In this document: positions 1-64,000 of the stretch, piece by piece
Layout: the number at the start of each line of letters is the position of its first letter
How positions within the stretch are numbered: position 1 is the first letter of the stretch
NCBI GenBank assembly: GCA_025450035.1
Contig: JANWIF010000012.1
Coordinates: 7,317-71,316 of the forward strand
Source: Gemmatimonadaceae bacterium
GTDB taxonomy: Bacteria > Gemmatimonadota > Gemmatimonadetes > Gemmatimonadales > Gemmatimonadaceae
Direction of reading: 5' to 3'
DNA length: 64,000 bases
The notes under the pieces: model-generated
Told to the model about the DNA's origin: nothing
The model's database searches: none
What the model saw: only the letters and a program-made list of their open reading frames with translations
Made by a program: the position numbers and the translations under genes

Positions 1-1
1 C

Positions 2-1804
2 GGCGCCATACGCGCGGGTAACTTCGTCGCAAGTGTCTCGGGAAAGCGTCGCGGGAAAGGCTCGTCCCGCGAGCAGTCCCCGTACGCAGAACTCATGGCC
101 GGCATACGACTCGTCATCGCGGAGAACATCGAACGCATTTATCGCGAGAACTGCCAGAACCTCGGCGTCTTCACATCGACCAACTTCGGGCTGATCGAAC
201 GCGTGCGCCGCGGCGAAGAAATTCCACTCTCCGAGTTCACTCACGGCGAAGGCGGCATCTCGCGCGGCATCATCGAGTACGGAGGACTGTTCAACTACAA
301 CCTGGCCCGGCTTCAGAACAAAGTGACCGTGCCCGCGGTCAATACGGCCCCGCACCCCATGACCATCGCGGAAAAGATCTTCGCACGCCATTGGGTCGTG
401 GACGCCGCCGCTGGCAAGCTCGGCGTACCAGCGGTACAGCCCTGTGACCAGGGATTTGTGCGTACCGACATCCGATTCAGTCACGAGTACGTCACCCCGA
501 TGGCCGCGATCTTCTTCGATCAGCTCGTAGGTCCAAACGAGCCGGTCAATGACCCATCGTCGGTGTTCTTCTTCCGCGACCACCTCACGTTTCTCGACCA
601 GGTAATGCGCCCCGAACACCTCGAGATGGGGTTGCTCGATGTGGCCAACCAGCTCGAGGCCAAGCAGCGCACGTTCGCCGCCGCCAAGGGCATCAAGCTG
701 TACGGCCAGCTCGATCACCGACTGAACCTGCACGGCGCGATCGCGGCTGCAGGATCAGAGGCGATCTGCCACTCCAAGATCTTGGAGGCACACGCGCTTC
801 CCGGACAGATCATCATCGGATCTGACTCGCACACGCCGCACGCGGGCGCGGTGGGCTGCGTGGCGTTTGGCGTCGGTACGACCGCGATCTTCAACTCGTG
901 GATCACCAACGACGTCCGCGTAGAAGTCCCGAAGTCGTTCAAGGTGATCGTGCGCGGCAAGAAGCCGTCGAACATCACCGCCAAGGACTTCATGCTGGAG
1001 ATCCTGCGCCTTCCATACATCAAGAGCGGCGAGGCGATCGGCCAGATCATCGAGTACGCCGGCGAAGCGGTGGAAGCGCTGTCCGTCGACGAACGGGCCA
1101 CGATGACCAACATGGCTGCCGAAGTTGGCGCGTTCACCGGGATCATCGCGCCCGACGAGAAGACCGTCGGGTACCTGGTCGCCCAACGCGGCATGACGCC
1201 GGCGGCCGCGCGTGCGCTGTGCGACGGACTCGCCTCCGATCCGGGCGCATCGTACGTGAAGATCATCGAGCTCGACGCGTCCAGCATGCGCCCCATGCTG
1301 GCACTCCCCGGTGATCCTGGGAACGGTATGTACGTAGATGAGCTGCCGGCCGACGTGCGCGTCGACATCGCCTACGCAGGCTCGTGCACGGCCGGCAAGA
1401 AGGAAGACATGGACATGTACGCGCGCGTCTTCCGCGAGGCCCTCGAACGCGGCGATCGCGTAGCGCCGCACGTGCGTTGCTTCATCCAGTGCGGATCGCG
1501 CGAAGTATTCGAGTACTGCCAGGCCCTGGGCTACGATCAGGTCTTCGCCGACGTCGGCGCGACGTTCGTGGAACCGTCGTGCGGCGCGTGCATCAATGCC
1601 GGACCCGGCGTGTCGCGCACCAAGGTCGAAGTGACCATCTCGGCCATCAACCGCAATTTCCCAGGCCGTTCCGGACCGGGGCAGCTCTACCTCGCCTCCC
1701 CGTACACTGTGGCCGCGTCCGCGATCGCCGGCCGCATCGTCGAGTGGACGTCGGGCCACGGTCAACGTGACACCGCTGCCGCGGATGAACTCGTCCACGC
1801 CTAA
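2..1804 (+). CDS. Aconitase/isopropylmalate-dehydratase family hydro-lyase with an N-terminal swivel (LeuD-like) domain; 5' end lies outside the window
   Basis: The frame is open from the window edge (..GNFVASVSGKRRGKGSSREQSPYAEL-MAGIR..). The LeuD-like GSSRE motif is followed by aconitase catalytic motifs GSDSHTPHAG, AGSCTAGKKED and CGACINAGPG. Confidence 0.8.
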   Translation, partial: GAIRAGNFVASVSGKRRGKGSSREQSPYAELMAGIRLVIAENIERIYRENCQNLGVFTSTNFGLIERVRRGEEIPLSEFTHGEGGISRGIIEYGGLFNYNLARLQNKVTVPAVNTAPHPMTIAEKIFARHWVVDAAAGKLGVPAVQPCDQGFVRTDIRFSHEYVTPMAAIFFDQLVGPNEPVNDPSSVFFFRDHLTFLDQVMRPEHLEMGLLDVANQLEAKQRTFAAAKGIKLYGQLDHRLNLHGAIAAAGSEAICHSKILEAHALPGQIIIGSDSHTPHAGAVGCVAFGVGTTAIFNSWITNDVRVEVPKSFKVIVRGKKPSNITAKDFMLEILRLPYIKSGEAIGQIIEYAGEAVEALSVDERATMTNMAAEVGAFTGIIAPDEKTVGYLVAQRGMTPAAARALCDGLASDPGASYVKIIELDASSMRPMLALPGDPGNGMYVDELPADVRVDIAYAGSCTAGKKEDMDMYARVFREALERGDRVAPHVRCFIQCGSREVFEYCQALGYDQVFADVGATFVEPSCGACINAGPGVSRTKVEVTISAINRNFPGRSGPGQLYLASPYTVAASAIAGRIVEWTSGHGQRDTAAADELVHA

Positions 1805-1865
1805 CGTGACGCGTCCGCCCCGCGCCGCCCGGTCGTCGCCGCCGGCCCTACCCGCATGACCGCGC

Positions 1866-2687
1866 ATGCGCGGTGAGTTCGTGGATGTGGGGGGGGTGCG
1901 GCTGTACTACTACGCCGCCGGTACCCGCGGCGCGGGAGAGCCGGTGGTGCTCATCCATGGCTTCCCCACCTCATCGCACCTGTGGCGCGATGTCGCGCCG
2001 CTCATCCCGGACGGACATCGGGTGGTGGTGCTCGATCTGCTCGGCTACGGCCGCAGTGACCCGCCTAACGGAAGGGACCTGAGCATCAAAGGGCACGCCG
2101 AGCGGGTGATCGCGTTGCTCGACGCCCTGCGCATCTCGTACGCCGCGATCGTTGGCCACGACCTGGGCGGCGGCATCGCGCAGTACCTCGCGGTGCGGCA
2201 TCCGACGCGCGTCGCCCGCCTCGCGCTCATCGACTCGGTAGCCTTCGACGACTGGCCGACGCGCCAGCTGAAGCTCGCCCGCACCACGCTCCCCCTCACC
2301 CGCTACCTCCCCGCCACCTGGATTCTCTCCATGTTGCGCTCGGAGTTGGAACGGGGCTACGCGCACGAGGACAGCGGCGCCCGCTCGATCGAGATTTACG
2401 TTCGTCCCTTCTGCCAACCTGAGGGATGCGATGCGCTCGTGGAGCATCTCGAGGCGCTCAACTCCGAGGAAACCGTGGCCCTTCAGCCGCGGCTCAAGGA
2501 CATCGTCGCACCCACCGCCGTGCTGTCCGGCGCCCACGACCCGTTCGTGCCGTCCGCCCTGGCTAAGCGGCTCCACGACGCGATCCCCAACTCGTCGCTC
2601 GACATGCTGCCGGACGTCCGCCATTTCACTCCCGAGGAAACCCCGGAGACGATCGGGGCGATCCTCGCCTCCTGGCTGCGACGTTAG
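1866..2687 (+). CDS. Alpha/beta-fold hydrolase (haloalkane dehalogenase / epoxide hydrolase-like, Asp nucleophile)
   Basis: Motifs VVLIHGFPTSSHLW and the GHDLGGGIA nucleophile elbow, with a C-terminal His region (DVRHFTPEE). ATG at 1866. Confidence 0.85.
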   Translation: MRGEFVDVGGVRLYYYAAGTRGAGEPVVLIHGFPTSSHLWRDVAPLIPDGHRVVVLDLLGYGRSDPPNGRDLSIKGHAERVIALLDALRISYAAIVGHDLGGGIAQYLAVRHPTRVARLALIDSVAFDDWPTRQLKLARTTLPLTRYLPATWILSMLRSELERGYAHEDSGARSIEIYVRPFCQPEGCDALVEHLEALNSEETVALQPRLKDIVAPTAVLSGAHDPFVPSALAKRLHDAIPNSSLDMLPDVRHFTPEETPETIGAILASWLRR

Positions 2688-2698
2688 GCAGGCGCGCG

Positions 2699-2790
2699 CC
2701 ACGCTCCCGCTACGTGCTACGTGCGGCTCTACCACACGACTCCCACGCCGACAGCCCCGTCGTGCTAACAGCATCCGAGACGCGCTCCCT
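2699..2790. repeat. Intergenic repeat, family B copy 1 (core ACGTGCTACGTGCGG)
   Basis: 29/32 identical to 13739-13770 over the first 32 nt and about 70% identical over about 90 nt. Lies between convergent genes. Confidence 0.5.
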
Positions 2791-4702
2791 AGAGCTTCCG
2801 AACCTCGTCGGCGGCCTCGAGCACGTGGCCAATGTCGCGCGAGAGCGCCCGCGCCTCGACAGTCGCGCTGTTCACCTCGCCGATCGCCGCCTGGACCCCA
2901 GACGATCGAAGCTTGAGCAGGTCGAGCTTGAGATTCTGAAGCGCGATCCCCACGCTCTCCAACTGTCCAGCCAGCCGCTCGCGCCGCGCACCCAGCTGCT
3001 GCAACGAGCCCAGTTGCCGCTCGAGGAGCGACAGCCGCCGCTCACGATCCACGGCACCATCCGGCTCCCGCCGGACGGCGGCGATGCGCTCCTCCAGCTG
3101 CGCGAGCGCACTCGGTGAGATGTCGCGGTCGAGGTGGTGCAGCATCTGAGCCACCGACGCCGCCCGCTGCGCCAGCCCGTCCACGGTAGGCACGACATCG
3201 GGGATCAGATCCCTGTCCTCCGTTCCCAACGAGTCGACGATCGACAGGATCGTGACCTTGTCGGCGGCGGCGCGGCGCACGGCGTCACCATACGGACCCT
3301 CCAGCACCTCCCGCGTCCCGAGCTTTGCGGCCTCCATCTCCGCGGCCGATGCCGGCGGCAGCGCCGGATCACCACCCAGATACGAGGCCGCCGATTCGCT
3401 CGCGATCGCGCGGGGATCGGGCTTTGTGAAGATCCGCTTCCACGTGACTCCCTCGGCCCACAACCCGCTCCACTGTTTCATCACCGAGGCGCCCATGCCT
3501 AACGCTGCAAACAGGAACCATGGGAACTGCGGCGAGGTGAGCATGTTGATGCCGGCCAGCATCGCGACCACGACCCCCGTACTCGCGAGGTTGCGGCGAA
3601 ACACGGTAATCCGCTCCGCGATTGGCCGCGCCTGCGAGCGATCGTCCCGCTGCAGTCGCGCATAACGGCGCGCATCCCGCCGCGACATGGGCGGCATGGC
3701 CCATCGCCAATCCTGGTTAGGCGGTTGGACCGTTCCGCCGGGCGCCGGCGCGGGCGCGGGAGGCGGCAGCCGCGGCGGTGCCGCTCGGCCGCCAAGCAGC
3801 GGAGCGGGCGGCGCGCGGCGCGCGGCGACCGATGCGGCGGTATGCTGCCACGGCACAGGCGGCGCCTCGGCACGCATCAGCGCATCGCGAAATGCGGACG
3901 CGGTCGGCCACCGGTCTTCCGGCCGCTTCACCAGCGCGCGCGAGATCGCGCCCTCCAGCGTCGGCGGCACGTCGGGGCGCAGCGCCCGCAACGGACGCGG
4001 TGTCTCGCTGATGTGCTTCATCATCATGGCCGGCGTGTTGGTCGCCCGGAATGGCAGTTCGCCGGACAGGATCTGGTAGGCCACGACACCCAGGGAATAG
4101 ATGTCGCTGCGCCCGTCCACTTCGCGCTCGCCTAACGCCTGCTCGGGGGACATGTACGCCGGAGTGCCCACGGTGACGCCGGTGATGGTGAGCCGCGAGT
4201 CCGCCTCGGCGGCTCGTGCGATCCCGAAATCCGTCACCATGGGACGCCCACTCTCCCGGTCGAGCAGGATGTTGTCCGGCTTCACGTCCCGATGGATGAC
4301 CCCGTGCATGTGCGCGTACGCGAGCGCGTCGGCCACGTCGCATAGAATGCGCCGCGCTTCGGGCACCGGCAGCGGACCGCGCGCAAGGCGACTGGCCAGG
4401 CTCTCGCCATCCACCAATCCCATCACGAAATACACGAGTCCATCGCGCTCGTCTACCGAGTAGATAGGCACGATGTTCGGATGATTCAGTTGGGCGGCGG
4501 TCTGCGCCTCACGCAGAAATCGGCGCCGCACGTCCTCGCGGAACGCCAGCTCCGGAGGCAGCACCTTGATCGCCACCGGGCGGCGCAACCGGGTGTCGGT
4601 GGCCCGGTAGACCACCGCCATCCCTCCGCGCCCCAGTTCGGTGTCCACCTGATACGCATCACCAACTGCCGCAATCACGCGGTCGCGCATCGGATCGGTC
4701 AC
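2789..4702 (-). CDS. Ser/Thr protein kinase with Pro-rich linker, 2TM-like membrane hairpin and C-terminal coiled coil
   Basis: Hanks motifs GRGGMAVVY, AIKVL, HRDVKPDNILL, DFGIA and GTPAYMSPE. Hydrophobic pair VVVAMLAGINML / FLFAALGMGASV. Start is GTG 4702 (GTGA overlap with the upstream kinase) or ATG 4690. Confidence 0.9.
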   Translation of the reverse strand: MTDPMRDRVIAAVGDAYQVDTELGRGGMAVVYRATDTRLRRPVAIKVLPPELAFREDVRRRFLREAQTAAQLNHPNIVPIYSVDERDGLVYFVMGLVDGESLASRLARGPLPVPEARRILCDVADALAYAHMHGVIHRDVKPDNILLDRESGRPMVTDFGIARAAEADSRLTITGVTVGTPAYMSPEQALGEREVDGRSDIYSLGVVAYQILSGELPFRATNTPAMMMKHISETPRPLRALRPDVPPTLEGAISRALVKRPEDRWPTASAFRDALMRAEAPPVPWQHTAASVAARRAPPAPLLGGRAAPPRLPPPAPAPAPGGTVQPPNQDWRWAMPPMSRRDARRYARLQRDDRSQARPIAERITVFRRNLASTGVVVAMLAGINMLTSPQFPWFLFAALGMGASVMKQWSGLWAEGVTWKRIFTKPDPRAIASESAASYLGGDPALPPASAAEMEAAKLGTREVLEGPYGDAVRRAAADKVTILSIVDSLGTEDRDLIPDVVPTVDGLAQRAASVAQMLHHLDRDISPSALAQLEERIAAVRREPDGAVDRERRLSLLERQLGSLQQLGARRERLAGQLESVGIALQNLKLDLLKLRSSGVQAAIGEVNSATVEARALSRDIGHVLEAADEVRKL

Positions 4703-6690
4703 ACGCGATCGCGCGCCGCGCGCCCCGCGCCGGAGCGCCGCGCATCATCCACACCCCGCACCGCGGCGTCGACATCTTCGGCGAGCGCCCGGGCCCGCTC
4801 GGTGAGCATCGTGATCTGCTGGCTCGCGCTCGCCACCCCGCCGGCGCGCAGCCGCAGTACGTCCACTCGCATGCCCTGTAGTGCCAGCGCGCAGCTCTCG
4901 AGTTTGGCCCACGTTTCGTCGCGCCGACGACTCCGGTCTGCCGCTGCTCGGCGATCGCGCTTGAGCCGCGCCAATCGGCGCACCCGATCCTCGCTGGCCG
5001 CAATCTCCAGCGGATTCGCCTGCGCCTCGAGCGCCGAGATCTCCCGCTCGATTCGCTCGGCCTCGCTCGGATCGATCGCCCGATCCTGTTCGCCCACAGA
5101 CAGCGCAAGCGACTGCACGCGCCGGTACAACCCCTCAGCGGCGGGAATCACCCCATCCACCAGGCTCTGGTCCGACTTCGGAAGCGACGTCACAATCTGA
5201 AGAATCTCGCCGCGGTCGACTCCGGCGCGCTGCACCGTGTCCCCGTAGCGGCCAAAGTCCGCGGCCGGCAATCCCCGCGGCGTGCCGAGCGCAGGAAGCG
5301 CGGCACGCTCGGCCTGCGAGCGCACACGGAGCTCGTCGCGCTTGCCGCGATTGAACACGGCCTGCGCATGCTCCATGGTTTCTGATGCCACGTCCACCAG
5401 GCGCCGATCTCGCGGCTGCCGGAACACATCGCGCCAATCGTATCCGGCCGACCACAGCTTCGAATACTTGGCCGCCATGAAGATGCTCCAGATCACGGTG
5501 ACCGAGATCAGATCCGTACTCGTGAACAACGCCGCGACGACAATCACCGCGTTCATGAAAAAGAACTTGGCAAAGCTCGACCGGAATCGCTGCACCTCGG
5601 GTGCCGATTGTCGGGCGATGTCATCGGGCGTCGGCGTGCCGTATCGCCCGGCCAATGTCGGGACGCTCGCGCCGCCGTAGGGCGTGGGATACGGCGCCGC
5701 CGGGATCGGCGACTGCGCGGGCGGGCCCCAGGGAGGCCGCGGTGCGATCGCGGTCGCCGTTCGCACGGGCATCTGACTCATGTCACCGCTCAGCACGGAC
5801 TTGAGCGCGGCCGCACTCGAGAATCGCTGCGATGGCTCTTTCTCCAACATCGTCATCACCGCCGCCGACAGATCAGGAGGAACGCCCGGACGCAATTGCT
5901 CGATCGGCGTGGGCTGTTCAGCGATGTGCTTCATGAGCATCGCCGCCGTGCTGTTCGCCTGGAATGGCAGTTGACCGGTAAGCATCTGGTAGCCCACCAC
6001 GCCCAACGAATACAGGTCGCTTCGCCCGTCAATCTCGCGATCGCCCGCCGCCTGCTCCGGCGACATGTACGCCGGCGTGCCAATGGCCACACCCGTGGCC
6101 GTGAGGCGGGAGTCCGCTCCTTCCTGGATCGCGCGCGCGATCCCGAAATCGGTGACCATCGCGCGGCCGCTTTCACCGAGCAGAATGTTGTCCGGCTTGA
6201 TGTCCCGATGGATCACTCCGCGCGCGTGGGCGTAGGCCAGCGCGTCAGCAACCTCGCGCAGAATTCGGCGTACCTCGTCGACAGGGAGCGGACCTTGCTC
6301 CGCCACGCGCTTGGCGAGCGTATCGCCATCCACGCACGCCATTACAAAGAACACCAACCCTTCGCGCTCATCGACGCTGTAAATGGGCACGATGTTCGGA
6401 TGACTCAGTTGCGCAGCGGTCTCGGCCTCACGCAAAAATCGAGACTTGATCTCCCCGCGAAACCCCAGCTCGGGCGGTAGAATCTTGATCGCCACCATGC
6501 GCTTGAGACGCCGGTCTCTAGCGCGATACACGATCCCCATGCCGCCGCGACCGAGTTCCCGGTCCAGCTCATAGTTGGCCGTGAGGGCACGCTCGACTAG
6601 CGAGCGAAGCTCAGCATCTGAGGAGACGGCGATGGGATCGGGCACCAAGAGGACTCTACGGGAATACAAGATGCTTAGTGTATCATGCAC
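4699..6690 (-). CDS. Ser/Thr protein kinase, tandem paralogue of 2789-4702 with the same architecture
   Basis: Motifs GRGGMGIVY, AIKIL, HRDIKPDNILL, DFGIA and GTPAYMSPE. 2TM-like segment FFMNAVIVVAALF..ISVTVIWSIFMAA and a C-terminal coiled coil. The first ~15 codons are low-GC3, so the true start may be GTG 6645. Confidence 0.88.
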   Translation of the reverse strand: MHDTLSILYSRRVLLVPDPIAVSSDAELRSLVERALTANYELDRELGRGGMGIVYRARDRRLKRMVAIKILPPELGFRGEIKSRFLREAETAAQLSHPNIVPIYSVDEREGLVFFVMACVDGDTLAKRVAEQGPLPVDEVRRILREVADALAYAHARGVIHRDIKPDNILLGESGRAMVTDFGIARAIQEGADSRLTATGVAIGTPAYMSPEQAAGDREIDGRSDLYSLGVVGYQMLTGQLPFQANSTAAMLMKHIAEQPTPIEQLRPGVPPDLSAAVMTMLEKEPSQRFSSAAALKSVLSGDMSQMPVRTATAIAPRPPWGPPAQSPIPAAPYPTPYGGASVPTLAGRYGTPTPDDIARQSAPEVQRFRSSFAKFFFMNAVIVVAALFTSTDLISVTVIWSIFMAAKYSKLWSAGYDWRDVFRQPRDRRLVDVASETMEHAQAVFNRGKRDELRVRSQAERAALPALGTPRGLPAADFGRYGDTVQRAGVDRGEILQIVTSLPKSDQSLVDGVIPAAEGLYRRVQSLALSVGEQDRAIDPSEAERIEREISALEAQANPLEIAASEDRVRRLARLKRDRRAAADRSRRRDETWAKLESCALALQGMRVDVLRLRAGGVASASQQITMLTERARALAEDVDAAVRGVDDARRSGAGRAARDRV

Positions 6691-11570: not shown

Positions 11571-11747
11571 GTCGTTCACGAAAGCTTCATCCCGTCTCAA
11601 AATTCGACGCCGTCTGTCCAGCTTGTGATACCCGTCCCTGCCTCGAAAGACACACGAGCCAGGGACCGCCAAGATAACCGGGCCCTTTGGAATTTCTGTG
11701 ACATTGCTCCGCCGAGCCCGTCGCGCCACCTTTTCCTCATGCCTCCG

Positions 11748-15198: not shown

Positions 15199-15199
15199 G

Positions 15200-18188: not shown

Positions 18189-18228
18189 GACCGTCGTTCC
18201 GAGCTTGAGGTGAATGGCATCGTATCGG

Positions 18229-34454: not shown

Positions 34455-34603
34455 GCTGATGGCCCCCGTTAGGCGAGGAGATTCACTACCCGTGACGGGA
34501 GACTGATGGGTCGGCGCGAGGTAACGCACGGCCCAGCACGGTGCGCCGCTCGTTGGCGTTGATCGCATCGCCCGGCGCGAACCGGACGGAGCCGATGCCG
34601 CGC

Positions 34604-51055: not shown

Positions 51056-51445
51056 TCACGATTCGTTCTCGTCGCGCATCACATCCCACCACGGCCGGCC
51101 GGCGTTAGGCGTGTGCTCCGCGATGAGCGCGTCGAGGATCTCCTGCGCCCGGGCAAGGAGCATCGCGCCCACGCGCGCCCGCGCCTCGTCCGCCCCAGCA
51201 GCACGCTCGAGAAAGTCGGTTTCCAGATGGCCGCTGATCCGCGGCTCGCCAACGCTCCACTGCACGAACAACAGATACGCGCCCGCCGGTGCCACGGGGT
51301 CGCCCGTGTCATCGGTCTCGATCGTAACGCTGTAGGAACGCCCATCGCACCCCTGAAATGCCGCGGGCCTGTCGTGGACGGCCATGTACCCGCCGAGCGT
51401 TCGCTCATCGCCTTTCGACGGATCGGGAGGAAGGAACCTACCCAC
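51056..51445 (-). CDS. Hypothetical protein (start GTG 51445 or ATG 51385)
   Basis: High-GC3 ORF in an operon-like position upstream of rsgA. No recognised motif. Confidence 0.5.
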   Translation of the reverse strand: MGRFLPPDPSKGDERTLGGYMAVHDRPAAFQGCDGRSYSVTIETDDTGDPVAPAGAYLLFVQWSVGEPRISGHLETDFLERAAGADEARARVGAMLLARAQEILDALIAEHTPNAGRPWWDVMRDENES

Positions 51446-56474: not shown

Positions 56475-58646
56475 CTAGTAGAAACGTCGACCCTGAGCGG
56501 CACGTTCGACGAGCAGTCGCGCCGGTTCAAAGCGCGGCGCGAACCGCCCGTGGTAAACTTCGAGTTGACGGACGATGTGCGCGATGCCCACGGCGTCGAC
56601 GTATCGGAACGGGCCGCCCCGGAACGGCGGGAACCCGATCCCGAACACGGCCCCAACATCCCCATCGCGCGCCGAGTGCAGAACGCCTTCTTCCAGACAA
56701 CGCGCCGCCTCGTTTACCATGGCAAGCACGCATCGCTGCTGCAGCTCCAGCACCGGGATTTCGGTGCGATGTACGCCCGTGGGGAGCAGCGCGTACACGC
56801 TCTCGTCCACGCCACCTTTCCGGCCGCCGGGCGCGTCATAGCGATAGAATCCGCTGCCACCTTTCCGTCCCTGGCGCCCGGATGCCACTACACGTGCCAG
56901 CGCTTGCGACGGCGCGAGGCGCGCACCGAATGACTCGCGCAGCACCGCACCCACCTTGGCGCCAACGTCGAGCCCTACTTCATCCATCAGCGTGATCGGC
57001 CCGACGGGAAATCCGAACTCGACGAGCGCGCGATCGAGCACATCGATGGCTACGCCTTCATCCAGCAGGTATCCGGCCTCGTTCATGAACGCGGCGAGCG
57101 TACGCGTAGTGTAGAATCCGGGGCCATCGCTCACGACGATGACGTGTTTGCCCAACTGCTTGCCGTACGCCACCGCGGTTGCGGTGGCCACGCCGGACGT
57201 GCGCGGCGTCATGATCACTTCGAGCAGCGGCATCTTCTGCACGGGAGAAAAAAAGTGCATGCCAAGCACTTGCTCCGGCCGCATCGACGACGCCGCAATG
57301 CGGGCGATGGGAATCGTGCTGGTGTTCGAGGCGTAGATCGCATCGCTCGGGATCACGCGCTCGGCTTCCTGCAACACACGCTCCTTGAGCGCGCGGTCCT
57401 CGAACACCGCTTCGATCACCAGGTCGACGTCGGAGAATCCCGAGTAGTCGGTAGTGCCGCCCACCAGGACCATCTGGTCCTCGAACTGGCGGTGCGTGAC
57501 CTGCTTCTTTGTGAGGCGTTCGCGCAGCACGTCGCTCACCGCCTTGAGGCCCTTGGCCACGCGCGCCGGGTCGGCATCCTTGAGGCGCACCACGGTGCCC
57601 TGCATCGCCGCCACGGCGGCGATGCCGGATCCCATGAACCCGGCGCCGAGTATGCCTAACTTGCGAACCGGGCGGGGCGCGATCGGCACCGGCGTGCCCG
57701 GGTCCTTCTTGAGCGCACTCGTGGCGAAAAACAAAAATACCAATTGGCGCGATACATCGGTCATCGCCATGTCGCCGAACAGCCGGGACTCTTCGGCGTA
57801 CCCGCGATCCGACCCCAGGTCGAACCCGGCCTTCACGGCGTCGATGGCGGCCAGCGGAGCCGGATAATTGCCGTGCGTCTTGGCCAGCGCGCCGGCGCGC
57901 GCCTGGCGGAACACGAGCGCGCGGCCGAGGGGATTGCTCTCAAGCACGACGCTCGCGGCGCTGCGCGACGCACGGCGTTGCCGTCGCGGAATCGTGCCGT
58001 CGGCCAGTTGCCGGGCGCGATCGAGCGCGACGTCGCGCAAAATCGCTGGGTGGACCATCTCATCCACCAGGCCCATCTGTAGCGCTTTTTTTGAACGCAC
58101 GTTCCGTCCGGTGAGAATCATGTCCAACGCCGCGCGCAACCCTACCAAACGCGGCAGCCGTTGCGTCCCGCCGGCGCCGGGAATGATACCGAGCTGAACT
58201 TCGGGAAGCGCTAGCACACTCTTTGGATGGTCGGTGACAATACGATACGCGCTGGCCAACGCCGCCTCGAGCCCACCGCCCAGGCACGCGCCATGGATCG
58301 CGACCACGACCGGCGCGCGCAGCGTCTCGAGTCGGCGCAGCAGCGACTGACCGGTCCGGCTGAGCGCCTCACCGTCCTGCGCGCTGCCCAGGGCAACGAA
58401 CTCCTCGATATCGGCGCCGGCGATGAAGTTCTCCGTCTTTCCCGACATGAGGACCACCGCGCGAATCGTCGTATCGCGCTCTACACGATCGAACAGCGCG
58501 GCGAAGTCGCTCATCACCGCGGCGCCGAGCGTGTTGACCGACGCGCCCGCGACGTCCAGGGTCGCGACGGCAATGCCGTTCTCGATGACGACGGAGAGGG
58601 CGCCGCTACCGTTAGGCAGCGAGGTGTCAGGGGCGGCGGCGCTCAC
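56475..58646 (-). CDS. fadJ: Fatty-acid oxidation complex alpha subunit (enoyl-CoA hydratase / 3-hydroxyacyl-CoA dehydrogenase)
   Basis: Crotonase domain (FIAGADI), NAD-binding ILGAGFMGSGIA, and 3HCDH C-domains. GTGA overlap with the thiolase stop. Confidence 0.9.
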   Translation of the reverse strand: MSAAAPDTSLPNGSGALSVVIENGIAVATLDVAGASVNTLGAAVMSDFAALFDRVERDTTIRAVVLMSGKTENFIAGADIEEFVALGSAQDGEALSRTGQSLLRRLETLRAPVVVAIHGACLGGGLEAALASAYRIVTDHPKSVLALPEVQLGIIPGAGGTQRLPRLVGLRAALDMILTGRNVRSKKALQMGLVDEMVHPAILRDVALDRARQLADGTIPRRQRRASRSAASVVLESNPLGRALVFRQARAGALAKTHGNYPAPLAAIDAVKAGFDLGSDRGYAEESRLFGDMAMTDVSRQLVFLFFATSALKKDPGTPVPIAPRPVRKLGILGAGFMGSGIAAVAAMQGTVVRLKDADPARVAKGLKAVSDVLRERLTKKQVTHRQFEDQMVLVGGTTDYSGFSDVDLVIEAVFEDRALKERVLQEAERVIPSDAIYASNTSTIPIARIAASSMRPEQVLGMHFFSPVQKMPLLEVIMTPRTSGVATATAVAYGKQLGKHVIVVSDGPGFYTTRTLAAFMNEAGYLLDEGVAIDVLDRALVEFGFPVGPITLMDEVGLDVGAKVGAVLRESFGARLAPSQALARVVASGRQGRKGGSGFYRYDAPGGRKGGVDESVYALLPTGVHRTEIPVLELQQRCVLAMVNEAARCLEEGVLHSARDGDVGAVFGIGFPPFRGGPFRYVDAVGIAHIVRQLEVYHGRFAPRFEPARLLVERAAQGRRFY

Positions 58647-59944
58647 GAAGCGTTCTCCAGCACCATCGCGAACCCCATACCGCCGGCGGAGCAGACGGTC
58701 ATCATCCCGAACTGTCCGCCCCGGCGTTTCAGCTCGTGGGCCAGCGTCATCGTGATGCGCGCGCCGGTCGCGCCGAACGGATGGCCGATGGCGATCGATC
58801 CGCCCATCACATTGAGCCGCGAGCGGTCCACTTCGCCTACCGGATGCGAGAGGCCGGCCCGCTCGGCCCAGGCCTGGCTCTCGAAGCCGTTGAGGTTTGA
58901 CAACACCTGCGCCGCGAAGGCCTCGTGCATCTCGACCAGATCGATGTTGGCGAGTGCCAGGCCGGCCCGGGCCAGCGCAGTCGGCGCCGCCAGGACCGGC
59001 GCCTGCAGCAGCTGCTCACCGGGGTCAAGGGCTGCGTACGCGTATGAGCGCACGAACGCTAACGGCGCATAGCCTAACGCACGAGCCTTCGCCTCGCTCA
59101 TGAGGATCACCGCCGCCGCGCCATCCGTGAGCGGCGAAGAGTTGCCGGCCGTCACCGTCCCGTACCTCCGGTCGAACACGGGCTTGAGCGCCGCGAGCTG
59201 CTCGAGGCTCGTGTCCGTGCGCACCCCGTTGTCGGCCGACAACCAGGTATCGTATTTCGGCGGCACGTACAGCGTCATCATCTCCGCCGCGAGCCGGCCA
59301 TCCTGCGTCCCCGCAGCAGCCAACCGGTGCGACCGCAGCGCGAACTGATCCTGTTCCTCGCGCGGAATGTGGTTGAGTTTGGCCATCTTCTCGGCCGACT
59401 GCCCCATCGTCTCGCCGGTGGACGGCTCCGCAATCGCTGGCGTGACGGGCACCAGGTCGCGCGCCCGCACGCCCGCGAAGGCACCAACCCGCCCGCCTAA
59501 CGAGCGAGCTCGGCTCGCCTTCATGAGCGCGTCGGAGAATCCCCGCGAGTGCAGGATCGGCACGTTGGACAACGACTCCGCACCGCCCGCGATCGCCACG
59601 TCCGCGTGGCCGAGTACGATCTGGTCCGCCGCGTCCGTGATCGCTTGATTCGCCGACGCGCACGCCCGCCCAACGGTGTAGGCCTGTATGCCCTTCGGCA
59701 GCATGGGCAGCAGCGCCACCTCGCGCGCCAGGTTGGGCGCGAGCACCGATGGCACAACGGTGCCGAACACCAGGAGATCGATCTCGCGCGGATCGAGCGT
59801 GGTCCGCTCCAACAACTCGGCAACCACCGCGCGCCCCATCTGCTCCGTGGTCATCGCCTTGAGCGCCGAGCCGGCCTTTGCAAACGGCGTCCTGAGCCCG
59901 CCGACAATCGCCACCCGCCGACCGCCACTGCTATAGCTTTCCAT
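58643..59944 (-). CDS. fadI: 3-ketoacyl-CoA thiolase (FadI-like beta subunit)
   Basis: Thiolase motifs VGRACASANQA, GGSIAIGHPFGATG and CSAGGMG. Confidence 0.9.
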   Translation of the reverse strand: MESYSSGGRRVAIVGGLRTPFAKAGSALKAMTTEQMGRAVVAELLERTTLDPREIDLLVFGTVVPSVLAPNLAREVALLPMLPKGIQAYTVGRACASANQAITDAADQIVLGHADVAIAGGAESLSNVPILHSRGFSDALMKASRARSLGGRVGAFAGVRARDLVPVTPAIAEPSTGETMGQSAEKMAKLNHIPREEQDQFALRSHRLAAAGTQDGRLAAEMMTLYVPPKYDTWLSADNGVRTDTSLEQLAALKPVFDRRYGTVTAGNSSPLTDGAAAVILMSEAKARALGYAPLAFVRSYAYAALDPGEQLLQAPVLAAPTALARAGLALANIDLVEMHEAFAAQVLSNLNGFESQAWAERAGLSHPVGEVDRSRLNVMGGSIAIGHPFGATGARITMTLAHELKRRGGQFGMMTVCSAGGMGFAMVLENAS

Positions 59945-59965
59945 ACACGTAAACTTAGAACGGCA

Positions 59966-60066: not shown

Positions 60067-60067
60067 C

Positions 60068-61672
60068 ATGCCCGTCGCCTTTTCCCCGTCCTCCCGGCCC
60101 GCCCTCGTCTCCGCCCTCACCACCACGCCCTTCGACGTTCTCGTGATTGGCGGCGGCATCGTCGGCGCGGGCACAGCGCGCGACGCCGCATTGCGGGGGC
60201 TGCGCGTCGCGCTCGTGGAGCGTGAGGATTTTGCGAGTGGCACGTCGAGCCGCTCGTCCCGTCTCATCCACGGCGGACTGCGCTACTTGGAGCACGGGCA
60301 GCTCCATCTCGTGTTCGAGGCGAGCCGGGAACGCCGGACACTCATGCACGTCGCGCCGCACCTGGTGCGTCCGCTGCAGTTCGTGTGGCCCATGTTCGAC
60401 CACGCACGCATCGCGCCGTGGAAGGTGCGCGCCGGGCTGACGCTCTATGACGCGCTGGCGCTCTTCCGCAACGTGTCGCGCCATCGGGTGGTGAACGCAG
60501 GGGCCGTGACCGCGATCGAGCCGGCGCTCCGCCAGAGCGGCTTGCGCGGTGGCGCGGTCTACTTCGACGCCACAACCGACGATGCCCGCCTAACGCTGGC
60601 CAACGCGCGGGCGGCACACGATGCGGGCGCGACGGTCGTGAGCCGCGTCGAAGTGAACCGCCTGCTCCTCGACACGGGCGCGGTGCGCGGCGCCTGCGCC
60701 CGCGACGTGCTCACCGGACGCACGATCGACATCACCGCGCGCATGGTCGTCAACGCGACCGGCCCGTGGAGCGATACCATTCGCCGGCTCGCCGACCCGG
60801 ACGCCACGCCCTCGGTGCGCGGCACCAAGGGCGTGCACATCGCGCTGCCGCGCGCCCGCGTGGGCAACACCGGTGCGCTCACGCTCCTGTCCCCGATCGA
60901 CGGCCGCGTGTTCTTCGTGCTCCCGGCCGGACAGACGACCATTGTCGGCACGACCGACACCGATTACGACGGATCGCTCGACGCGGTGCGCGCGACCCCT
61001 GCTGATGTCGCCTACCTGCTGCGCTCCGCCAATGCGTACTTCCCCGCAACGGCGCTCGTGGCCGCCGATGTCGTGGCCGCGTGGGCGGGAATCCGTCCGC
61101 TGATTGGCGGCGATGCGCACCACCCCGATGCGTTGTCCCGCGAACATGCAGTGACGTTCACTGCGCCGGGGCTCATCACCGTCACCGGCGGAAAGCTCAC
61201 CACGTACCGCGTGATGGCGCACGACGTGGCGAACGCCGCCCAACGCGCTCTCGGCCAACCGGTGCGCCCCGCGGACACGGCGCACCTCCCGCTTCCGGGT
61301 GGCGCGATCACGTCGATGGACGCCGAGCGCGACGACGCGGAGCATCGCACCGGATCGCGCGACCTGGCCACGCACCTGGTGTTCCGCTACGGCACGGAAT
61401 GGCGCGACGTGTGGTCGCTCGCCGAGCACGATCGCGGCCTGGCGCGCCCGCTCGCATCGCCGCTGCCCGACATCGCCGCCGAGCTCCAATGGGCGGTGGA
61501 TCACGAGATGGCCCTCTCGTTAGGCGACCTGTTGATTCGCCGCCTCCACCTGGCGTTCGAGACCGCGGATCACGGCCGCGCCGTCGCGCAGGCGATCGCC
61601 GCGCAGTTTGGGTGGCAGAACACGGAGGTGGAGCGATACGCTGCCGAAGCGCACGCGATCTTCGGCGTCTAA
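60068..61672 (+). CDS. glpD: FAD-dependent glycerol-3-phosphate dehydrogenase
   Basis: DVLVIGGGIVGAGTARDAALRG, GTSSRSSRLIHGGLRYLE, and the GlpD C-terminal domain. Confidence 0.92.
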   Translation: MPVAFSPSSRPALVSALTTTPFDVLVIGGGIVGAGTARDAALRGLRVALVEREDFASGTSSRSSRLIHGGLRYLEHGQLHLVFEASRERRTLMHVAPHLVRPLQFVWPMFDHARIAPWKVRAGLTLYDALALFRNVSRHRVVNAGAVTAIEPALRQSGLRGGAVYFDATTDDARLTLANARAAHDAGATVVSRVEVNRLLLDTGAVRGACARDVLTGRTIDITARMVVNATGPWSDTIRRLADPDATPSVRGTKGVHIALPRARVGNTGALTLLSPIDGRVFFVLPAGQTTIVGTTDTDYDGSLDAVRATPADVAYLLRSANAYFPATALVAADVVAAWAGIRPLIGGDAHHPDALSREHAVTFTAPGLITVTGGKLTTYRVMAHDVANAAQRALGQPVRPADTAHLPLPGGAITSMDAERDDAEHRTGSRDLATHLVFRYGTEWRDVWSLAEHDRGLARPLASPLPDIAAELQWAVDHEMALSLGDLLIRRLHLAFETADHGRAVAQAIAAQFGWQNTEVERYAAEAHAIFGV

Positions 61673-61685
61673 CCGAGCGGCGGCC

Positions 61686-62162
61686 TTACCGTCCCGCGCG
61701 CTCATGAATCGTCGCCAGCTCCATGATCTGCAGCTGTCGCGTCGACGCCGGAAGCTTGAGGAGCGTGACATCGCCCACGCCCTTCCCCACCCACGCGCGC
61801 CCGATCGGCGAGGACATCGTCACGTGCCCCTCCTCGAACTCGACGGCGTCGCCGAACACCAGGTTGTACACCTCGAGCGTGCCACTCTTGACATCCTTCA
61901 CCGTCACGCGCGAGCCTAACCCAACTTTGTCGGTCGGAATCTGGCTAATGTCGATCTGCGACAGCTTGCTCAACCGCTGGCGCAGCTGACCCAGTCGCGC
62001 CTGTACGAACTGTTGGCGTTCGAGCGCAGCCTTGTACTCGCTGTTCTCGCGTAGATCGCCCAGCTCCACCGCCTTCCGAATCTCTTGCGGGAGCACGACG
62101 TTCAACTCGTGCTGCAAGCGCTCGACCTCGCCGTGCAGCTTCTCCTTCAGCTCTTCGATCAT
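61686..62162 (-). CDS. greA: Transcription elongation factor GreA
   Basis: Coiled-coil N-domain (GDLRENSEYKAALERQ) and a C-terminal FKBP-like domain. ATG 62162; the ORF-track start at 62180 is TTG. Confidence 0.92.
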   Translation of the reverse strand: MIEELKEKLHGEVERLQHELNVVLPQEIRKAVELGDLRENSEYKAALERQQFVQARLGQLRQRLSKLSQIDISQIPTDKVGLGSRVTVKDVKSGTLEVYNLVFGDAVEFEEGHVTMSSPIGRAWVGKGVGDVTLLKLPASTRQLQIMELATIHERAGR

Positions 62163-62188
62163 CGGACCATCACGACGCAAAAAGTGGA

Positions 62189-62213: not shown

Positions 62214-62384
62214 CTGTCCTCATGCCTGCTGCCGCCCTCTGCCTACCGGGAAAAACGTGTCGGTCCACGACGCGCACCTGGGCGCGCTCCACGGCGCGCC
62301 CGCGCCGACGGCGCGGATCCAAACACTCGTCCTCGAAGGGCAATGCGGCGGCTCATATCTCCATACTAGGCGCCGAACGCGACG

Positions 62385-63215
62385 GTGTCCACCCTGCCAG
62401 GCGCGCACCCGCCGGCGTACACTACGGCGATGCTTCGCCTCGAGATGTACGACGACGTGACGCGCGTCGTGATGTCGACCGCGATCAGCCGTTCGATCGG
62501 CTACGAGGTGAGTGCGTATCTCGTCCGCGGCGTCTTGATCGACGTGGGCTTCCCGGCGGTCGCGCGAGAACTGGCGGCAGTCCTCGAGCAGGCACGGCCG
62601 TCAGGCGCGATGATCACGCATCATCACGAGGACCACGCCGGCAACGTGCAGCTCGCCGCCCATGCGGGCCTGCCCATCGCCGCGTCCGAGGCGACACTCC
62701 ACCTGCTGCGCGCCCGTCCGCGGCTCGCGCCCTACCGGCGCATCATCTGGGGCACCCCGCCGCATCTGCTCGCGCCGATCATTCCGTTCACGAGCGAGAC
62801 GCTCAGGCTCGTGCCGACGCCCGGCCACGCCGCGGACCACCATATCGTGTGGGACGCCGAACGCGAAGCGATGTTCGGTGGCGACCTCTTTCTCGGCGTG
62901 AAAGTTCGCGCCGCGCACGCCGAGGAGCATCCGCGGCAGCTGGTCGCCAGCCTGCGCGCCGCCGCGGCCCTTCGCCCAACGCGGCTGTTCGATGCCCACC
63001 GAGGGCTGGTGCGCGATCCCGTGTCGGCGCTGCTGGCCAAGGCCGATTGGCTGGACGCCACGGTCGATGCCGTCGACCAGCGCATTGCCGCCGGGTGGTC
63101 CGACCGGGCGATCGCGCGGGCGTTGCTCGGACGCGAGGAGCTCGCGTACCATCTCTCGCGCGGCGCCATGTCCAAAATCAATCTGGTGGCCCGCGTGCGA
63201 GCCACGCACCCGTGA
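62385..63215 (+). CDS. MBL-fold metallo-hydrolase (start GTG 62385 or ATG 62430)
   Basis: Motif ITHHHEDHAGN (HxHxDH) and downstream His/Asp ligands (TPGHAADH). Confidence 0.85.
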   Translation: MSTLPGAHPPAYTTAMLRLEMYDDVTRVVMSTAISRSIGYEVSAYLVRGVLIDVGFPAVARELAAVLEQARPSGAMITHHHEDHAGNVQLAAHAGLPIAASEATLHLLRARPRLAPYRRIIWGTPPHLLAPIIPFTSETLRLVPTPGHAADHHIVWDAEREAMFGGDLFLGVKVRAAHAEEHPRQLVASLRAAAALRPTRLFDAHRGLVRDPVSALLAKADWLDATVDAVDQRIAAGWSDRAIARALLGREELAYHLSRGAMSKINLVARVRATHP

Positions 63216-63221
63216 CCATCG

Positions 63222-64000
63222 TTAGGCACCTGCGCCGGCGGCCGCCGCGGCCGCCGCCTCGCGGCGCAACGCGTCCATCATCTCACCACGCCGCTCGTAG
63301 AGACGCTTCAGCGGCCGCGGCGCGCACCTGGCGAGCGCGTACGACGTGAGCAGCGGCAGCGCGATCGTCGCGTCGGTGTAGCACACCACCGCGTCGGGCA
63401 GCCGGTCGGGATCGATCTTCCCCCAACTCACCGCTTCCGCCGGCGTGGCGCCCGATAGACCGCCCGTGTCGGCACGCGCATCGGTCACCTGCAGGAAGAA
63501 GTCGTGCCCCTTCTCGTCGATGCCTAACACTTCCTGGATTTGCGGCTCCGTCTGCAGCATGAAATTCTTCGGGCTGCCACCGCCCATGATCATCACCGCA
63601 CTCTTCCCACCGCCCCGCTTGGCCGCCAGCACGATCGCCGCCGTCTCGTTCACGTCGAGGTTGGGGTCGATCACCAGCGCGTTCCCCTCCAACGCCAGCG
63701 CCGCCACGTTCATCCCGATCGAGGAATCGCCCGGCGATGACGTATAGATGGGCACGCTCGCCGAGTGCGCCGCCGAGAGTAGCGAACGCTGGCCTATGCC
63801 TAACGCATCCTCGCGCTCACGCACGTATCGCCCGCAGAGCCAGTGAAACTCGCCGCTCGACATCGGCCGCTGAAACTCCGGGCTGCGCATGATCTGCCGG
63901 AAGAACGCGTCCGTGGACAGTAACACGTCGTAGTCGAAGAAGATATCATAGATGCGAACGACCCCCTCGGTGCGCAGCACGACGTCGCTCTCCTGCGCGT
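63222..64000 (-). CDS. Deoxyhypusine synthase-like protein; N-terminus lies beyond the window
   Basis: DHS family pattern ([17 protein letters not shown].., [27 protein letters not shown]). The frame stays open to position 64000. Confidence 0.85.

Follow-up and report, generated by a model that had tools for sequence, protein, structure and literature searches.

Gene content of the window and the word GTTRGGC

The DNA analysed in this study (hereafter the window) is a stretch of 64,000 nucleotides from contig JANWIF010000012.1 of a Gemmatimonadaceae bacterium, and the element in question is a short word, GTTRGGC, that recurs throughout it. The word occurs in two forms, GTTAGGC (hereafter the A-form) and GTTGGGC (hereafter the G-form), and its reverse complement is GCCYAAC. 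Its genes and its matches mark the window as part of the ordinary chromosome of a soil-dwelling, uncultured member of the Gemmatimonadaceae. The gene content is of the housekeeping kind, with aconitase, three Ser/Thr kinases, lon, PBP1, nadE, a chemotaxis operon, a CHAT protein, an E1 dehydrogenase, ClC, pyrroloquinoline quinone (PQQ) genes, M16, M14 and S9 peptidases, beta-oxidation genes, greA and deoxyhypusine synthase. The gene models of PBP1/nadE (9516-13571) and cheW were set by the annotation of relatives. The Lon protein is 74-84% identical to those of Gemmatimonadaceae metagenome-assembled genomes (MAGs) in the genome collection. A kinase protein of the window has an exact match in the soil MAG GCA_036553705.1 and in the Joint Genome Institute (JGI) metagenome 3300035175, the contigs of which are 99.8-99.9% identical to the window. 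Within the 64 kb, no competence, pilus, restriction-modification or recombination gene was found (comEC, comEA, dprA and type IV pilus genes included), nor was any methyltransferase gene, tRNA or Rfam match.

Over-representation of the A-form

The A-form was found 61 times in the window, 33 times on the + strand as GTTAGGC and 28 times on the - strand as GCCTAAC. The G+C content of the window is 67.0%. Dinucleotide-preserving shuffles of the window gave 2.55 +/- 1.83 copies with a maximum of 8, and Markov models of orders 0, 1, 2 and 3 predicted 7.2, 2.6, 2.0 and 5.3 copies, respectively. Fifty-six copies lie fully inside protein-coding sequences (CDSs), where synonymous-codon shuffling of each gene gave 3.1 +/- 1.8. 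The excess of the A-form, put at 12-fold or more, persists under all of these models, and a composition artefact was therefore rejected. By the order-3 Markov z-score, GTTAGGC is by far the most deviant 7-mer of the window. Markov models of orders 4 and 5 do "explain" the count, because the 5- and 6-mers on which they rest themselves consist of the word (62 copies of TTAGGC and 67 of GTTAGG).

An empirical background was taken from 145 unrelated bacterial loci (2.3 Mb), a set that includes distant DPP-IV homologues from a metagenome scan (identity <=54%) serving as background only. The density of GTTAGGC was 0.029/kb in this set and 0.017/kb in the 35 unrelated loci with a GC content >=60%, versus 0.95/kb in the window. 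Over-representation amounts to 18-57-fold for the A-form and 3.5-8-fold for the G-form. Alignment of the 15-nt flanks of the A-form showed only weak preferences, for C at position -1 (34/61) and for G at +1 (30/61), and a longer motif was rejected. The information is limited to the seven positions, the flanks holding <=0.24 bit. Since the flanks are nearly free of information, the word is a bare heptamer and no part of a longer repeat.

A first-pass annotation, made from the letters of the window, had counted 33 GTTAGGC and 28 GCCTAAC, which proved exact on recount. Its coordinates were right except for three (35056, 39469 and 57655 should read 35057, 39459 and 57654), and C as the 5' neighbour in about 60% of copies agrees with the 34/61 found here. 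Its estimate of a roughly 9-fold enrichment, based on about 7 expected copies, named a real excess and understated its size, since 2.6 (dinucleotide shuffle) or 3.1 (codon shuffle) copies are expected. The enrichment of the A-form survives both the dinucleotide and the codon null models.

The G-form and the degeneracy of the word

The G-form is present in 51 copies, 26 on the + strand and 25 on the - strand, against 8.3 expected from the dinucleotide shuffle and 14.7 +/- 3.8 from the codon shuffle (z = 9.6). Its density of 0.80/kb in the window compares with 0.08-0.14/kb in related genomes. Under the codon-shuffle null, 20 of the 21 one-mismatch neighbours of GTTAGGC are at background, and the exception is GTTGGGC. 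The one-mismatch variants sum to 143 in the window, so that the figure of about 15 given in the first-pass annotation was far too low, GTTGGGC alone accounting for 51. The purine (R) at position 4 likewise refutes its view of one exact heptamer whose variants are scarce. It follows that the word in its functional form is GTTRGGC, in which A is preferred, G is second best and no other base is tolerated. Both forms together make 112 copies (1.75/kb), 59 on the + strand and 53 on the - strand.

The two forms differ in the reading frames that they occupy. The G-form is found in synonymous frames, as G-TTG-GGC (15 copies) and G-CCC-AAC (6 copies), and also in frames that an A would turn into a stop codon or a missense change, namely GCC-CAA-C (14), GTT-GGG-C (12), GC-CCA-AC (3) and GT-TGG-GC (1). 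The G-form thus occupies frames that are closed to the A-form by a stop codon or an amino-acid change, and the usage of the two forms is complementary.

Reading frames and codon choice

Sixty of the 61 A-form copies touch a CDS, the same figure as that of the first-pass annotation for copies in CDSs. The frames used are G-TTA-GGC (Leu-Gly, 35 copies), G-CCT-AAC (Pro-Asn, 13) and GC-CTA-AC (Leu-Thr, 8). In four further copies the word contains a stop codon, that of aconitase, an alpha/beta hydrolase, cheW or deoxyhypusine synthase. The frame GTT-AGG-C (Val-Arg) is empty in spite of 58 synonymous opportunities in the window.

The bases of the neighbouring codons govern codon choice just as the word demands. 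For Leu after a codon ending in G and before GGC (n=86), the codons are TTA 35, TTG 15, CTC 22, CTG 7 and CTT 7, whereas TTA is used in only 6 of 93 other Leu-Gly contexts of the window. Where Pro follows a G and precedes AAC, CCT is found 14 times, CCC 6 times and CCG never; elsewhere the counts are CCG 9, CCC 8 and CCT 1. Gln between GCC and C is encoded by CAA 14 times and by CAG once, versus CAG 64 and CAA 11 elsewhere. CTA encodes Leu in 8/16 cases between GC and AC (1/90 elsewhere), and Val-Gly before C is GTT-GGG in 12/39 cases (3/93 elsewhere). The low-cost synonymous opportunities are near saturation, with 20/20 for Pro-Asn and 14/15 for Ala-Gln.

When the two orientations relative to the coding strand were compared separately with synonymous shuffles, the A-form numbered 35 in the same orientation (1.5 expected) and 21 in the anti orientation (1.4 expected); the corresponding figures for the G-form were 28 (7.6 expected) and 23 (7.5 expected). 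The independent enrichment of the two orientations shows that the target of the pressure is the word in double-stranded DNA, not codons or peptides. Dipeptide frequencies are nearly the same as in motif-poor relatives, Pro-Asn alone being mildly raised (observed/expected 1.83 vs 1.17-1.28). A reshaping of the proteome was accordingly rejected, the effect of the word being essentially synonymous. The force on the word is strong relative to codon bias and weak relative to amino-acid constraint. Off-frame "ambush" stop codons, which the TAG or TAA within the word might provide, were rejected as an explanation, because the G-form behaves alike without a stop.

These counts bear on several statements of the first-pass annotation. 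About 35 copies in G-TTA-GGC, three copies in lon, five in ClC and four copies with the gene's own stop codon (1799, 2683, 18228 in cheW and 63221) were all found as it had described. Its view that selection acts on the DNA word rather than on codon choice agrees with the separate enrichment of the two orientations, and its own counter-proposal, that TTA-GGC is merely a preferred codon pair, fails because the Pro-Asn and Leu-Thr contexts are enriched too. It was mistaken in holding that every stop-free frame is used, the Val-Arg frame being empty (0/58). The near absence of TTA and CTA outside the word was correct in part: 35 of the 54 TTA codons do lie inside the word, but 38 of 46 CTA codons, and also 54 of 68 CCT codons, lie outside.

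As a separate observation, the stop codons of 52 genes, counted before the gene models of cheW and nadE were revised, are TGA 25, TAG 17 and TAA 10. The share of TAG and TAA is high for a genome of 67% GC; the word contains three TAA stops and one TAG stop.

Spacing and polarity

The spacing of GTTRGGC in the window is Poisson-like, with a coefficient of variation (CV) of 1.00, and the copies are uniform along gene bodies (Kolmogorov-Smirnov P = 0.75). Pairwise distances in the window showed no preferred spacing, except for multiples of 3 due to the reading frame. With no favoured spacing between copies, a dimeric or composite site was rejected. The only abutting inverted pair is at 28568-28581, where GCCTAAC is followed by GTTGGGC to form a 14-bp near-palindrome in a Ser/Thr kinase gene.

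The GC skew is negative throughout the window, and no switch of replichore occurs inside it. Against a polarity of 75%, the partition of 59:53 has P = 5e-7 (window only). A polar motif of the Chi type, or of the type of the FtsK-orienting polar sequences (KOPS), is excluded by a non-polar word in one-signed GC skew. The first-pass annotation had noted both the lack of strand polarity (33:28 for the A-form) and the unlikeness to Chi and KOPS, and both points hold for the two forms together.

Distribution among relatives

Three lon loci of relatives (L083, L084 and L085) are syntenic with the window, with Lon 90-91% identical and a nucleotide identity of 78-84%. They carry the A-form at 1.2-1.7/kb and the G-form at 0.9/kb. 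The sister lineage L086 has 0.18/kb of each form. In four other Gemmatimonadaceae (L088, L013, L005 and L004) a stricter word, CGTTAGGY, with an invariant C is found at 0.24-0.93/kb; in L004, L005 and L013, CG precedes TTAGG in 26/27 cases and the G-form is not enriched. At least 12 other Gemmatimonadaceae loci showed neither form, nor any other hyper-abundant 7-mer. In these sequence comparisons the trait is confined to a clade of Gemmatimonadaceae, other lineages having a stricter dialect or nothing.

The C at position -1 is present in about 100% of copies in the CGTTAGGY lineages, in about 75% in L083-L085 and in about 55% in the window. The specificity thus appears to have been relaxed stepwise, from CGTTAGGY to a CGTTAGGC-biased word and then to GTTRGGC.

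A candidate for a further dialect was the word ATCCCCGC in the motif-free relative L087, where it has 22 copies vs 1.9 expected (22-27 copies in all counts). It was rejected as an unrelated intergenic palindromic repeat resembling the repetitive extragenic palindromic (REP) type, roughly GTCATCCCCGCGAAAGCGGGGATCCATG. Clusters of this intergenic stem-loop family lie at about 2159-2260, 5579-5680 and 12659-12680 of L087, with more on the minus strand. In L088, two CGTTAGG copies (15033-15059 and 17159-17185) stand right after near-identical sequences like the 3' end of a tRNA, GCCGGTCAGGTTCGACTCCA and GCCGGTCAGGTCCCACTCCA. ARAGORN called no tRNA in the L088 locus. The stretch around them has few genes and many motifs, and these ends may be what is left of att-like sites.

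Origin and maintenance of the copies

The origin of the copies was analysed at positions that can be aligned with relatives. At eight x-Leu-Gly positions in Lon, of which seven are conserved, the window reads TTA-GGC or TTG-GGC, whereas up to 15 relatives have CTC-GGC or CTG-GGC almost uniformly. All eight are on the + strand. The A-form copies, all G-TTA-GGC, are at 8148-8154 (conserved Leu-Gly, common to L013), 8940-8946 (CTC, CTG or CTT followed by GGY in 15 relatives) and 9027-9033 (conserved Leu-Gly). The G-form copies are GAG-TTG-GGC at 7521-7527 (conserved Glu-Leu-Gly), 7581-7587 and 7680-7686, AAG-TTG-GGC at 8286-8292 (CTC in 14/15 relatives), and the copy at 8907-8913, which lies in a variable stretch where the amino acids of the relatives differ. 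In PBP1, the conserved Trp-Leu-Gly at 9810-9816 (-) is TGG-TTA-GGC where relatives have CTC-GGC or CTG-GGC, and at GCC-CAA-C sites, such as 4489-4495 (+), relatives carry CAG. Two G-form sites of the window carry the A-form in other lineages: TCG-TTG-GGC at 6001-6007 (-) is TCG-TTA-GGC in L005 and L013, and CCG-CCC-AAC at 10389-10395 (+) in PBP1 is CCG-CCT-AAC in L004. In poorly conserved stretches, the word coincides with amino-acid differences (Pro-Pro-Asn vs Pro-Pro-Ser, Ala-Leu-Gly vs Gly-Trp-Gly). The substitutions that create the word include transversions, and they add A/T in a GC-rich genome. Relatives have common codons at the conserved Leu-Gly, Pro-Asn and Ala-Gln positions, where this lineage has TTA/TTG, CCT/CCC or CAA. 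The sites of the window are therefore derived: point substitutions produced them, in the face of codon preference, at positions that were already there and in many cases are conserved in amino acid.

Retention was measured only where the encoded amino acids are the same, for motif sites and for control 7-mers. Between L083 and L084 (84% nucleotide identity), 77% of motif sites were identical and 82% kept GTTRGGC, versus 41.5% of controls (P 3e-7). The values were 67% and 85% versus 43% for L083 and L085 (84% identity; P ~1e-6), and 72% and 86% versus 41% for L084 and L085 (83% identity; P ~1e-6). Between the window and L083-L085 (79% identity), 39-50% of motif sites were identical and 67-73% kept GTTRGGC, versus 30-34% of controls (P 6e-4 to 4e-3). 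The synonymous sites of the word, for which the first-pass annotation had suggested a comparison with relatives, are thus conserved in L083-L085 at 82-86% against 41-43%. The main change tolerated at motif sites is A<->G at position 4. There is also turnover, 16 of the 23 aligned A-form sites of L083 being lineage-specific. The MAG contigs L081 and L082, 99.8-99.9% identical to the window, differ from it by about 7 true single-nucleotide polymorphisms, none of which is in the word.

The word is maintained, with about twice the retention of other synonymous sites and with turnover on top. Maintenance with turnover rules out a passive relic. A hot spot of mutation alone is also disfavoured, since it would not keep rare codons in place as synonymous sites nearby become saturated.

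What might read the word

The above results imply that GTTRGGC is a genome-wide word of double-stranded DNA, read by a sequence-specific protein of this clade; what this protein is, we infer by analogy. The best reading would seem to be a self tag resembling a DNA uptake sequence, to which we give a probability of roughly 0.4. The DNA uptake sequences (DUS) of Neisseriaceae (GCCGTCTGAA and its dialects) and the uptake signal sequences (USS) of Pasteurellaceae (AAGTGCGGT / ACAAGCGGT) are likewise non-palindromic, occur at roughly 1/kb and lie equally on both strands. They share with GTTRGGC the use of the least costly frames, the origin by point mutation, the maintenance, and lineage dialects with a common core. 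Intergenic enrichment, as in known uptake sequences, is shared by L088 only.

On the uptake reading, the protein that reads the word would be the DNA receptor of a natural-transformation machine. Conspecific fragments with the word would be preferentially taken up and then recombined into the chromosome. Alleles that gain the word would thereby be over-transmitted (molecular drive), until the cost of a rare codon or of an amino-acid change balances the drive. Such a balance, we propose, would fill the cheap synonymous sites and leave the costly Val-Arg frame empty, and it would place the weaker G-form where the A-form means a stop or a missense change. The uptake model predicts a density near 1/kb, strand symmetry, dialects, a point-mutational origin and the use of the cheapest frames, and most of these predictions have been described for DUS and USS (PMC3630211, PMC1939737, PMC1626085, bioRxiv 10.1101/2025.10.24.684340). 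DUS dialects with a common core are found in related lineages (PMC3630211), and USS and DUS arise by point mutation in pre-existing sequence and favour low-cost frames (PMC1939737; bioRxiv 10.1101/2025.10.24.684340). In addition, frequent homologous recombination, associated with homologues of ComEC, has been reported for abundant soil bacteria (19 species, from a study set with Gemmatimonadetes among its members; PMC7305173). A 2025 survey still treated uptake sequences as restricted to Neisseriaceae and Pasteurellaceae. The further claim that this clade has sequence-specific DNA uptake or self-recognition, the first outside Proteobacteria and with the first 7-bp degenerate signal, its specificity visibly evolving, is put forward tentatively, as possible and somewhat doubtful.

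Minor pilins are established or proposed DNA receptors in Neisseria and Pasteurellaceae, and a dedicated receptor of the ComP type goes with known uptake sequences. A minor pilin is likewise an established or proposed DNA receptor in Legionella. As an observation in its own right, upstream of the aconitase gene, at a distance of about 2 kb and just beyond the start of the window, there is a gene for a GspH/FimT-like pseudopilin (L083:425-841, L084:407-823 and L085:336-752). Its product of 138 aa begins with a hydrophobic, prepilin-like segment and gives a faint Pfam match to GspH/FimT. Homologues occur also in the motif-poor L003, L006 and L007.

A number of facts weigh against the uptake reading. 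The word is 7 bp long and degenerate, as compared with 9-12 bp for known uptake sequences; it has no extended flanking consensus; and its enrichment, tens-fold, is below theirs. In known uptake sequences a single mismatch lowers over-representation 82-92-fold (PMC1939737). About half of the known DNA-uptake-enhancing sequences (DUES) are in terminators (bioRxiv 10.1101/2025.10.24.684340), whereas in the window no inverted-repeat pairs or terminator use was found. No report of natural transformation or uptake sequences in Gemmatimonadota was found in the literature searched. The neighbour-joining tree of Lon, a single gene and weak evidence, shows motif-bearing lineages interspersed with motif-free ones, and several losses must therefore be assumed; the patchy tree suggests that the reader of the word may have been repeatedly lost, or transferred.

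The scarcity of the word between genes is a further such point, since pure uptake drive should fill unconstrained DNA first. Only 1 of the 112 GTTRGGC copies of the window is fully intergenic. When the window and L083-L085 were pooled, 4 of 255 copies were intergenic vs 18-20 expected (P ~1e-5), in a test that has only 4-9 kb of intergenic DNA behind it; another 8 copies of this pooled set straddle stop codons. In motif-poor relatives, near-matches with one or two mismatches have equal density in coding and intergenic DNA, so that the supply of precursors was rejected as the cause of the scarcity. Elsewhere the picture differs: 8 of the 21 copies of the CGTTAGG dialect in L088 are intergenic (3.2 expected), and in L013, L005 and L004 the intergenic share is roughly proportional. 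The intergenic depletion, real but modestly supported, is a peculiarity of the clade and not a general rule.

The likeness to DUS and USS that the first-pass annotation had drawn stands, then, as regards non-polarity, dialects, origin by point substitution and maintenance; it does not extend to the length of 7 bp, the lack of an extended consensus and the intergenic depletion. The same differences, together with a host phylum, Gemmatimonadota, that is new to such sequences, separate GTTRGGC from DUS and USS as a whole.

Of the other explanations, the one that survives best is an intracellular site comparable to HIP1 (highly iterated palindrome 1; GCGATCGC) of cyanobacteria. The word would then be bound or modified inside the cell, as the target of, for example, an orphan methyltransferase with the asymmetric site GCCYAAC or a chromosome-maintenance or repair protein, and would be kept by selection and not by uptake. 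The first-pass annotation had named a nucleoid-protein or repair-associated word as its alternative, which may still be right. Asymmetric 7-mers with R/Y degeneracy are typical of the recognition sites of methyltransferases or Type IIG/III enzymes, and GTTRGGC suits such a target. Intergenic depletion would be easier to understand if an intracellular binder or modifier disturbed promoters, and a gene prone to loss or transfer would fit the patchy phylogeny. The phenomenology of HIP1 is the same in excess, frames, conservation, mismatch tolerance and lineage variants (PMC5861425): it exceeds composition-aware nulls 15-300x, reaches at least about 1/kb, uses several frames, is conserved above controls, tolerates one-mismatch variants, has variant words by lineage, and its function is unsettled (PMC5861425, PMC4390886). 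HIP1 is, however, an 8-bp palindrome that contains two orphan-methylase targets, themselves palindromic, and it is enriched in non-coding DNA too (PMC5861425), with quasi-periodic spacing; GTTRGGC is asymmetric and not self-complementary, is spaced in a Poisson manner (CV 1.0) and is nearly all coding in the clade of the window. Moreover, the 64-kb window holds no methyltransferase or partner gene, recognition sites linked to restriction are normally avoided and not accumulated, and the intergenic enrichment in L088 does not fit. We consider this explanation less likely than uptake, yet a serious rival to it.

A Chi-like signal without polarity is less probable. It would switch a helicase-nuclease of the RecBCD, AddAB or AdnAB type from degradation to repair and mark self DNA, and the strand equality would stem from breaks with two ends, as caused by desiccation or radiation, and not from collapsed forks. 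Chi sites (GCTGGTGG in E. coli; 5-8 nt in Firmicutes) are, like GTTRGGC, short, non-palindromic, lineage-specific, maintained and over-represented in genes of the core chromosome, and GTTRGGC would offer about 1 correctly oriented site per kb. To our knowledge, all characterised Chi words are co-oriented with replication and few-fold enriched, in part through favoured codons. The enrichment found here is 18-57-fold and falls on the rarest codons, against codon preference, and the word is partitioned 59:53 in one-signed GC skew whereas Chi sites are strand-biased (PMC5861425). The likeness to KOPS and other architecture-imparting sequences, which are FtsK-orienting octamers, goes no further than their being frequent, short and asymmetric chromosomal words; KOPS are defined by an extreme skew between the strands, which reverses at ori and dif, and GTTRGGC shows no skew.

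It is also improbable that a bias of mutation or repair in certain contexts, such as a hot spot of deamination or of repair like very-short-patch (VSP) repair, turned near-matches into the word as a neutral side effect, the word itself having no function. The two commonest steps are indeed of the C-to-T type (CTG to TTG, and TTG to TTA via the other strand), GTTGGGC and GTTAGGC interconvert at orthologous sites, and the same mechanism has been proposed for HIP1 (PMC4390886). All seven positions are nevertheless built, from several precursors and including transversions (CTC to TTA, CCG to CCT, CAG to CAA). With 67% GC in the genome, the changes run toward A/T, opposite to T:G-to-C:G short-patch repair, and two distinct sequence contexts would need to be hot. 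Such a bias should also act equally between genes, where near-matches of this clade stay unconverted.

A translational or protein effect, that is, TTA-GGC as a preferred codon pair or a selected peptide, would account for the 35 of 61 copies in the single frame G-TTA-GGC, yet we regard it as very improbable. It is refuted by the enrichment of the reverse complement on the coding strand (21 vs 1.4 and 23 vs 7.5) and by the dependence on the neighbouring codon: the use of TTA is tied to the last base of the preceding codon, the context effect extends over five frames and unrelated dipeptides (LG, PN, LT, AQ, VG), four copies span stop codons, and dipeptide frequencies are near those of motif-poor relatives. 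A dispersed fragment of a mobile repeat (REP, miniature inverted-repeat transposable element or insertion-sequence end), for which nothing speaks except the high copy number, can practically be dismissed, refuted as it is by flanks that are unique beyond weak C(-1) and G(+1), by in-frame copies in conserved housekeeping genes at sites orthologous to ordinary codons of relatives, and by the quite different look both of the genuine REP-like repeat of L087 and of such elements in general, which share extended, mostly intergenic and often palindromic sequence.

Significance of the word

Hyper-abundant chromosomal words are known as a class, and GTTRGGC is one of them; what is new is the phylum, the short degenerate word, the bias to coding regions and the series of specificities. 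Full-text literature searches turned up no account of GTTAGGC, GTTRGGC or GCCYAAC as a bacterial word in excess. Words at about 1/kb genome-wide are rare, and those that are understood report uptake (DUS/USS), break repair (Chi) or segregation (KOPS), while HIP1 is unresolved after 30 years.

If the uptake reading is true, it would point to sequence-selective gene exchange among soil bacteria that are abundant and mostly uncultured, and to frequent natural transformation favouring DNA of their own kind in a soil phylum that ranks among the most abundant and the least studied. The word would then serve as a marker for the binning of MAGs and for spotting foreign DNA in them, the dialect series would help to find the reader protein by phylogenetic profiling, and addition of the word to donor DNA would be a practical handle for genetic tractability. 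Even without an uptake function, a force at the DNA level prevails over codon choice at most Leu-Gly, Pro-Asn and Ala-Gln sites that could take the word, and it ought to be allowed for in gene finding, codon-usage modelling and dN/dS analysis of this lineage.

Positions of the individual copies

The A-form copies that contain stop codons are at 1799-1805 (-; aconitase, GCC-TAA-C), 2683-2689 (+; hydrolase, CGT-TAG-GC), 18228-18234 (+; cheW, GCC-TAA-C on the - strand) and 63221-63227 (+; deoxyhypusine synthase, GCC-TAA-C on the - strand). The sole fully intergenic copy of the window is at 34468-34474 (+). In addition to the copies in lon and the Trp-Leu-Gly site of PBP1 given above, G-TTA-GGC is found on the + strand at 13001-13007 (nadE), 23173-23179, 24004-24010, 28451-28457, 29330-29336, 39053-39059, 42229-42235, 43795-43801, 44449-44455, 46063-46069, 46848-46854, 47370-47376 and 61519-61525. 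On the - strand it is found at 3497-3503, 4130-4136, 15100-15106, 17037-17043, 19212-19218, 35057-35063, 54209-54215, 57654-57660, 59072-59078, 59495-59501, 61914-61920 (greA), 63522-63528 and 63798-63804, and five times in ClC, at 49079-49085, 49121-49127, 49340-49346, 49691-49697 and 49952-49958.

The Pro-Asn frame G-CCT-AAC accounts for the + strand copies at 3716-3722, 10347-10353 (PBP1), 16209-16215, 35288-35294, 50731-50737, 51104-51110, 53631-53637, 55661-55667 and 58611-58617, and for the - strand copies at 2063-2069, 28568-28574, 40142-40148 and 42637-42643; the copy at 28568 is the inverted one that adjoins the G-form at 28575-28581 (+). The Leu-Thr frame GC-CTA-AC is used at 14096-14102, 30259-30265, 34018-34024 and 55530-55536 on the + strand, and at 22764-22770, 24267-24273, 39459-39465 (where the gene call is uncertain) and 60588-60594 on the - strand.

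Among the G-form copies not yet located, GCC-CAA-C (Ala-Gln) at 1181-1187 (-) is a site where the A-form would be a stop codon, and 13999-14005 (-) reads GCG-TTG-GGC. The others on the + strand are at 15473-15479, 22351-22357, 22468-22474, 27262-27268, 28100-28106, 29056-29062, 30624-30630, 32059-32065, 33116-33122, 37775-37781, 44000-44006, 44120-44126, 44629-44635, 53757-53763, 54467-54473, 54781-54787, 55215-55221 and 59732-59738. Those on the - strand are at 11829-11835, 14267-14273, 16280-16286, 18896-18902, 24119-24125, 24158-24164, 30725-30731, 32786-32792, 39161-39167, 39252-39258, 44312-44318, 44675-44681, 45236-45242, 46684-46690, 47857-47863, 50095-50101, 52629-52635, 53261-53267, 57150-57156, 59668-59674, 61238-61244 and 62974-62980.

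Other observations in the window

The three Ser/Thr protein kinase genes, located within 2789-6690 and 27837-29609, are paralogous and cross-match in every BLAST comparison. Two of them adjoin each other upstream of lon, an arrangement that is kept across Gemmatimonadaceae loci. Among the chemotaxis genes, a stand-alone gene at 21475-21759 (-) encodes a 95-aa HNH endonuclease. Since a homologue is present in the motif-free L089 (16811-17095) in another neighbourhood, the HNH gene is not linked to the word. At 34919-35003, about 24 differences are concentrated in the last ~85 bp of the otherwise 99.8% identical MAG contig L081; the probable cause is an artefact of the assembly end or a junction that varies between strains.

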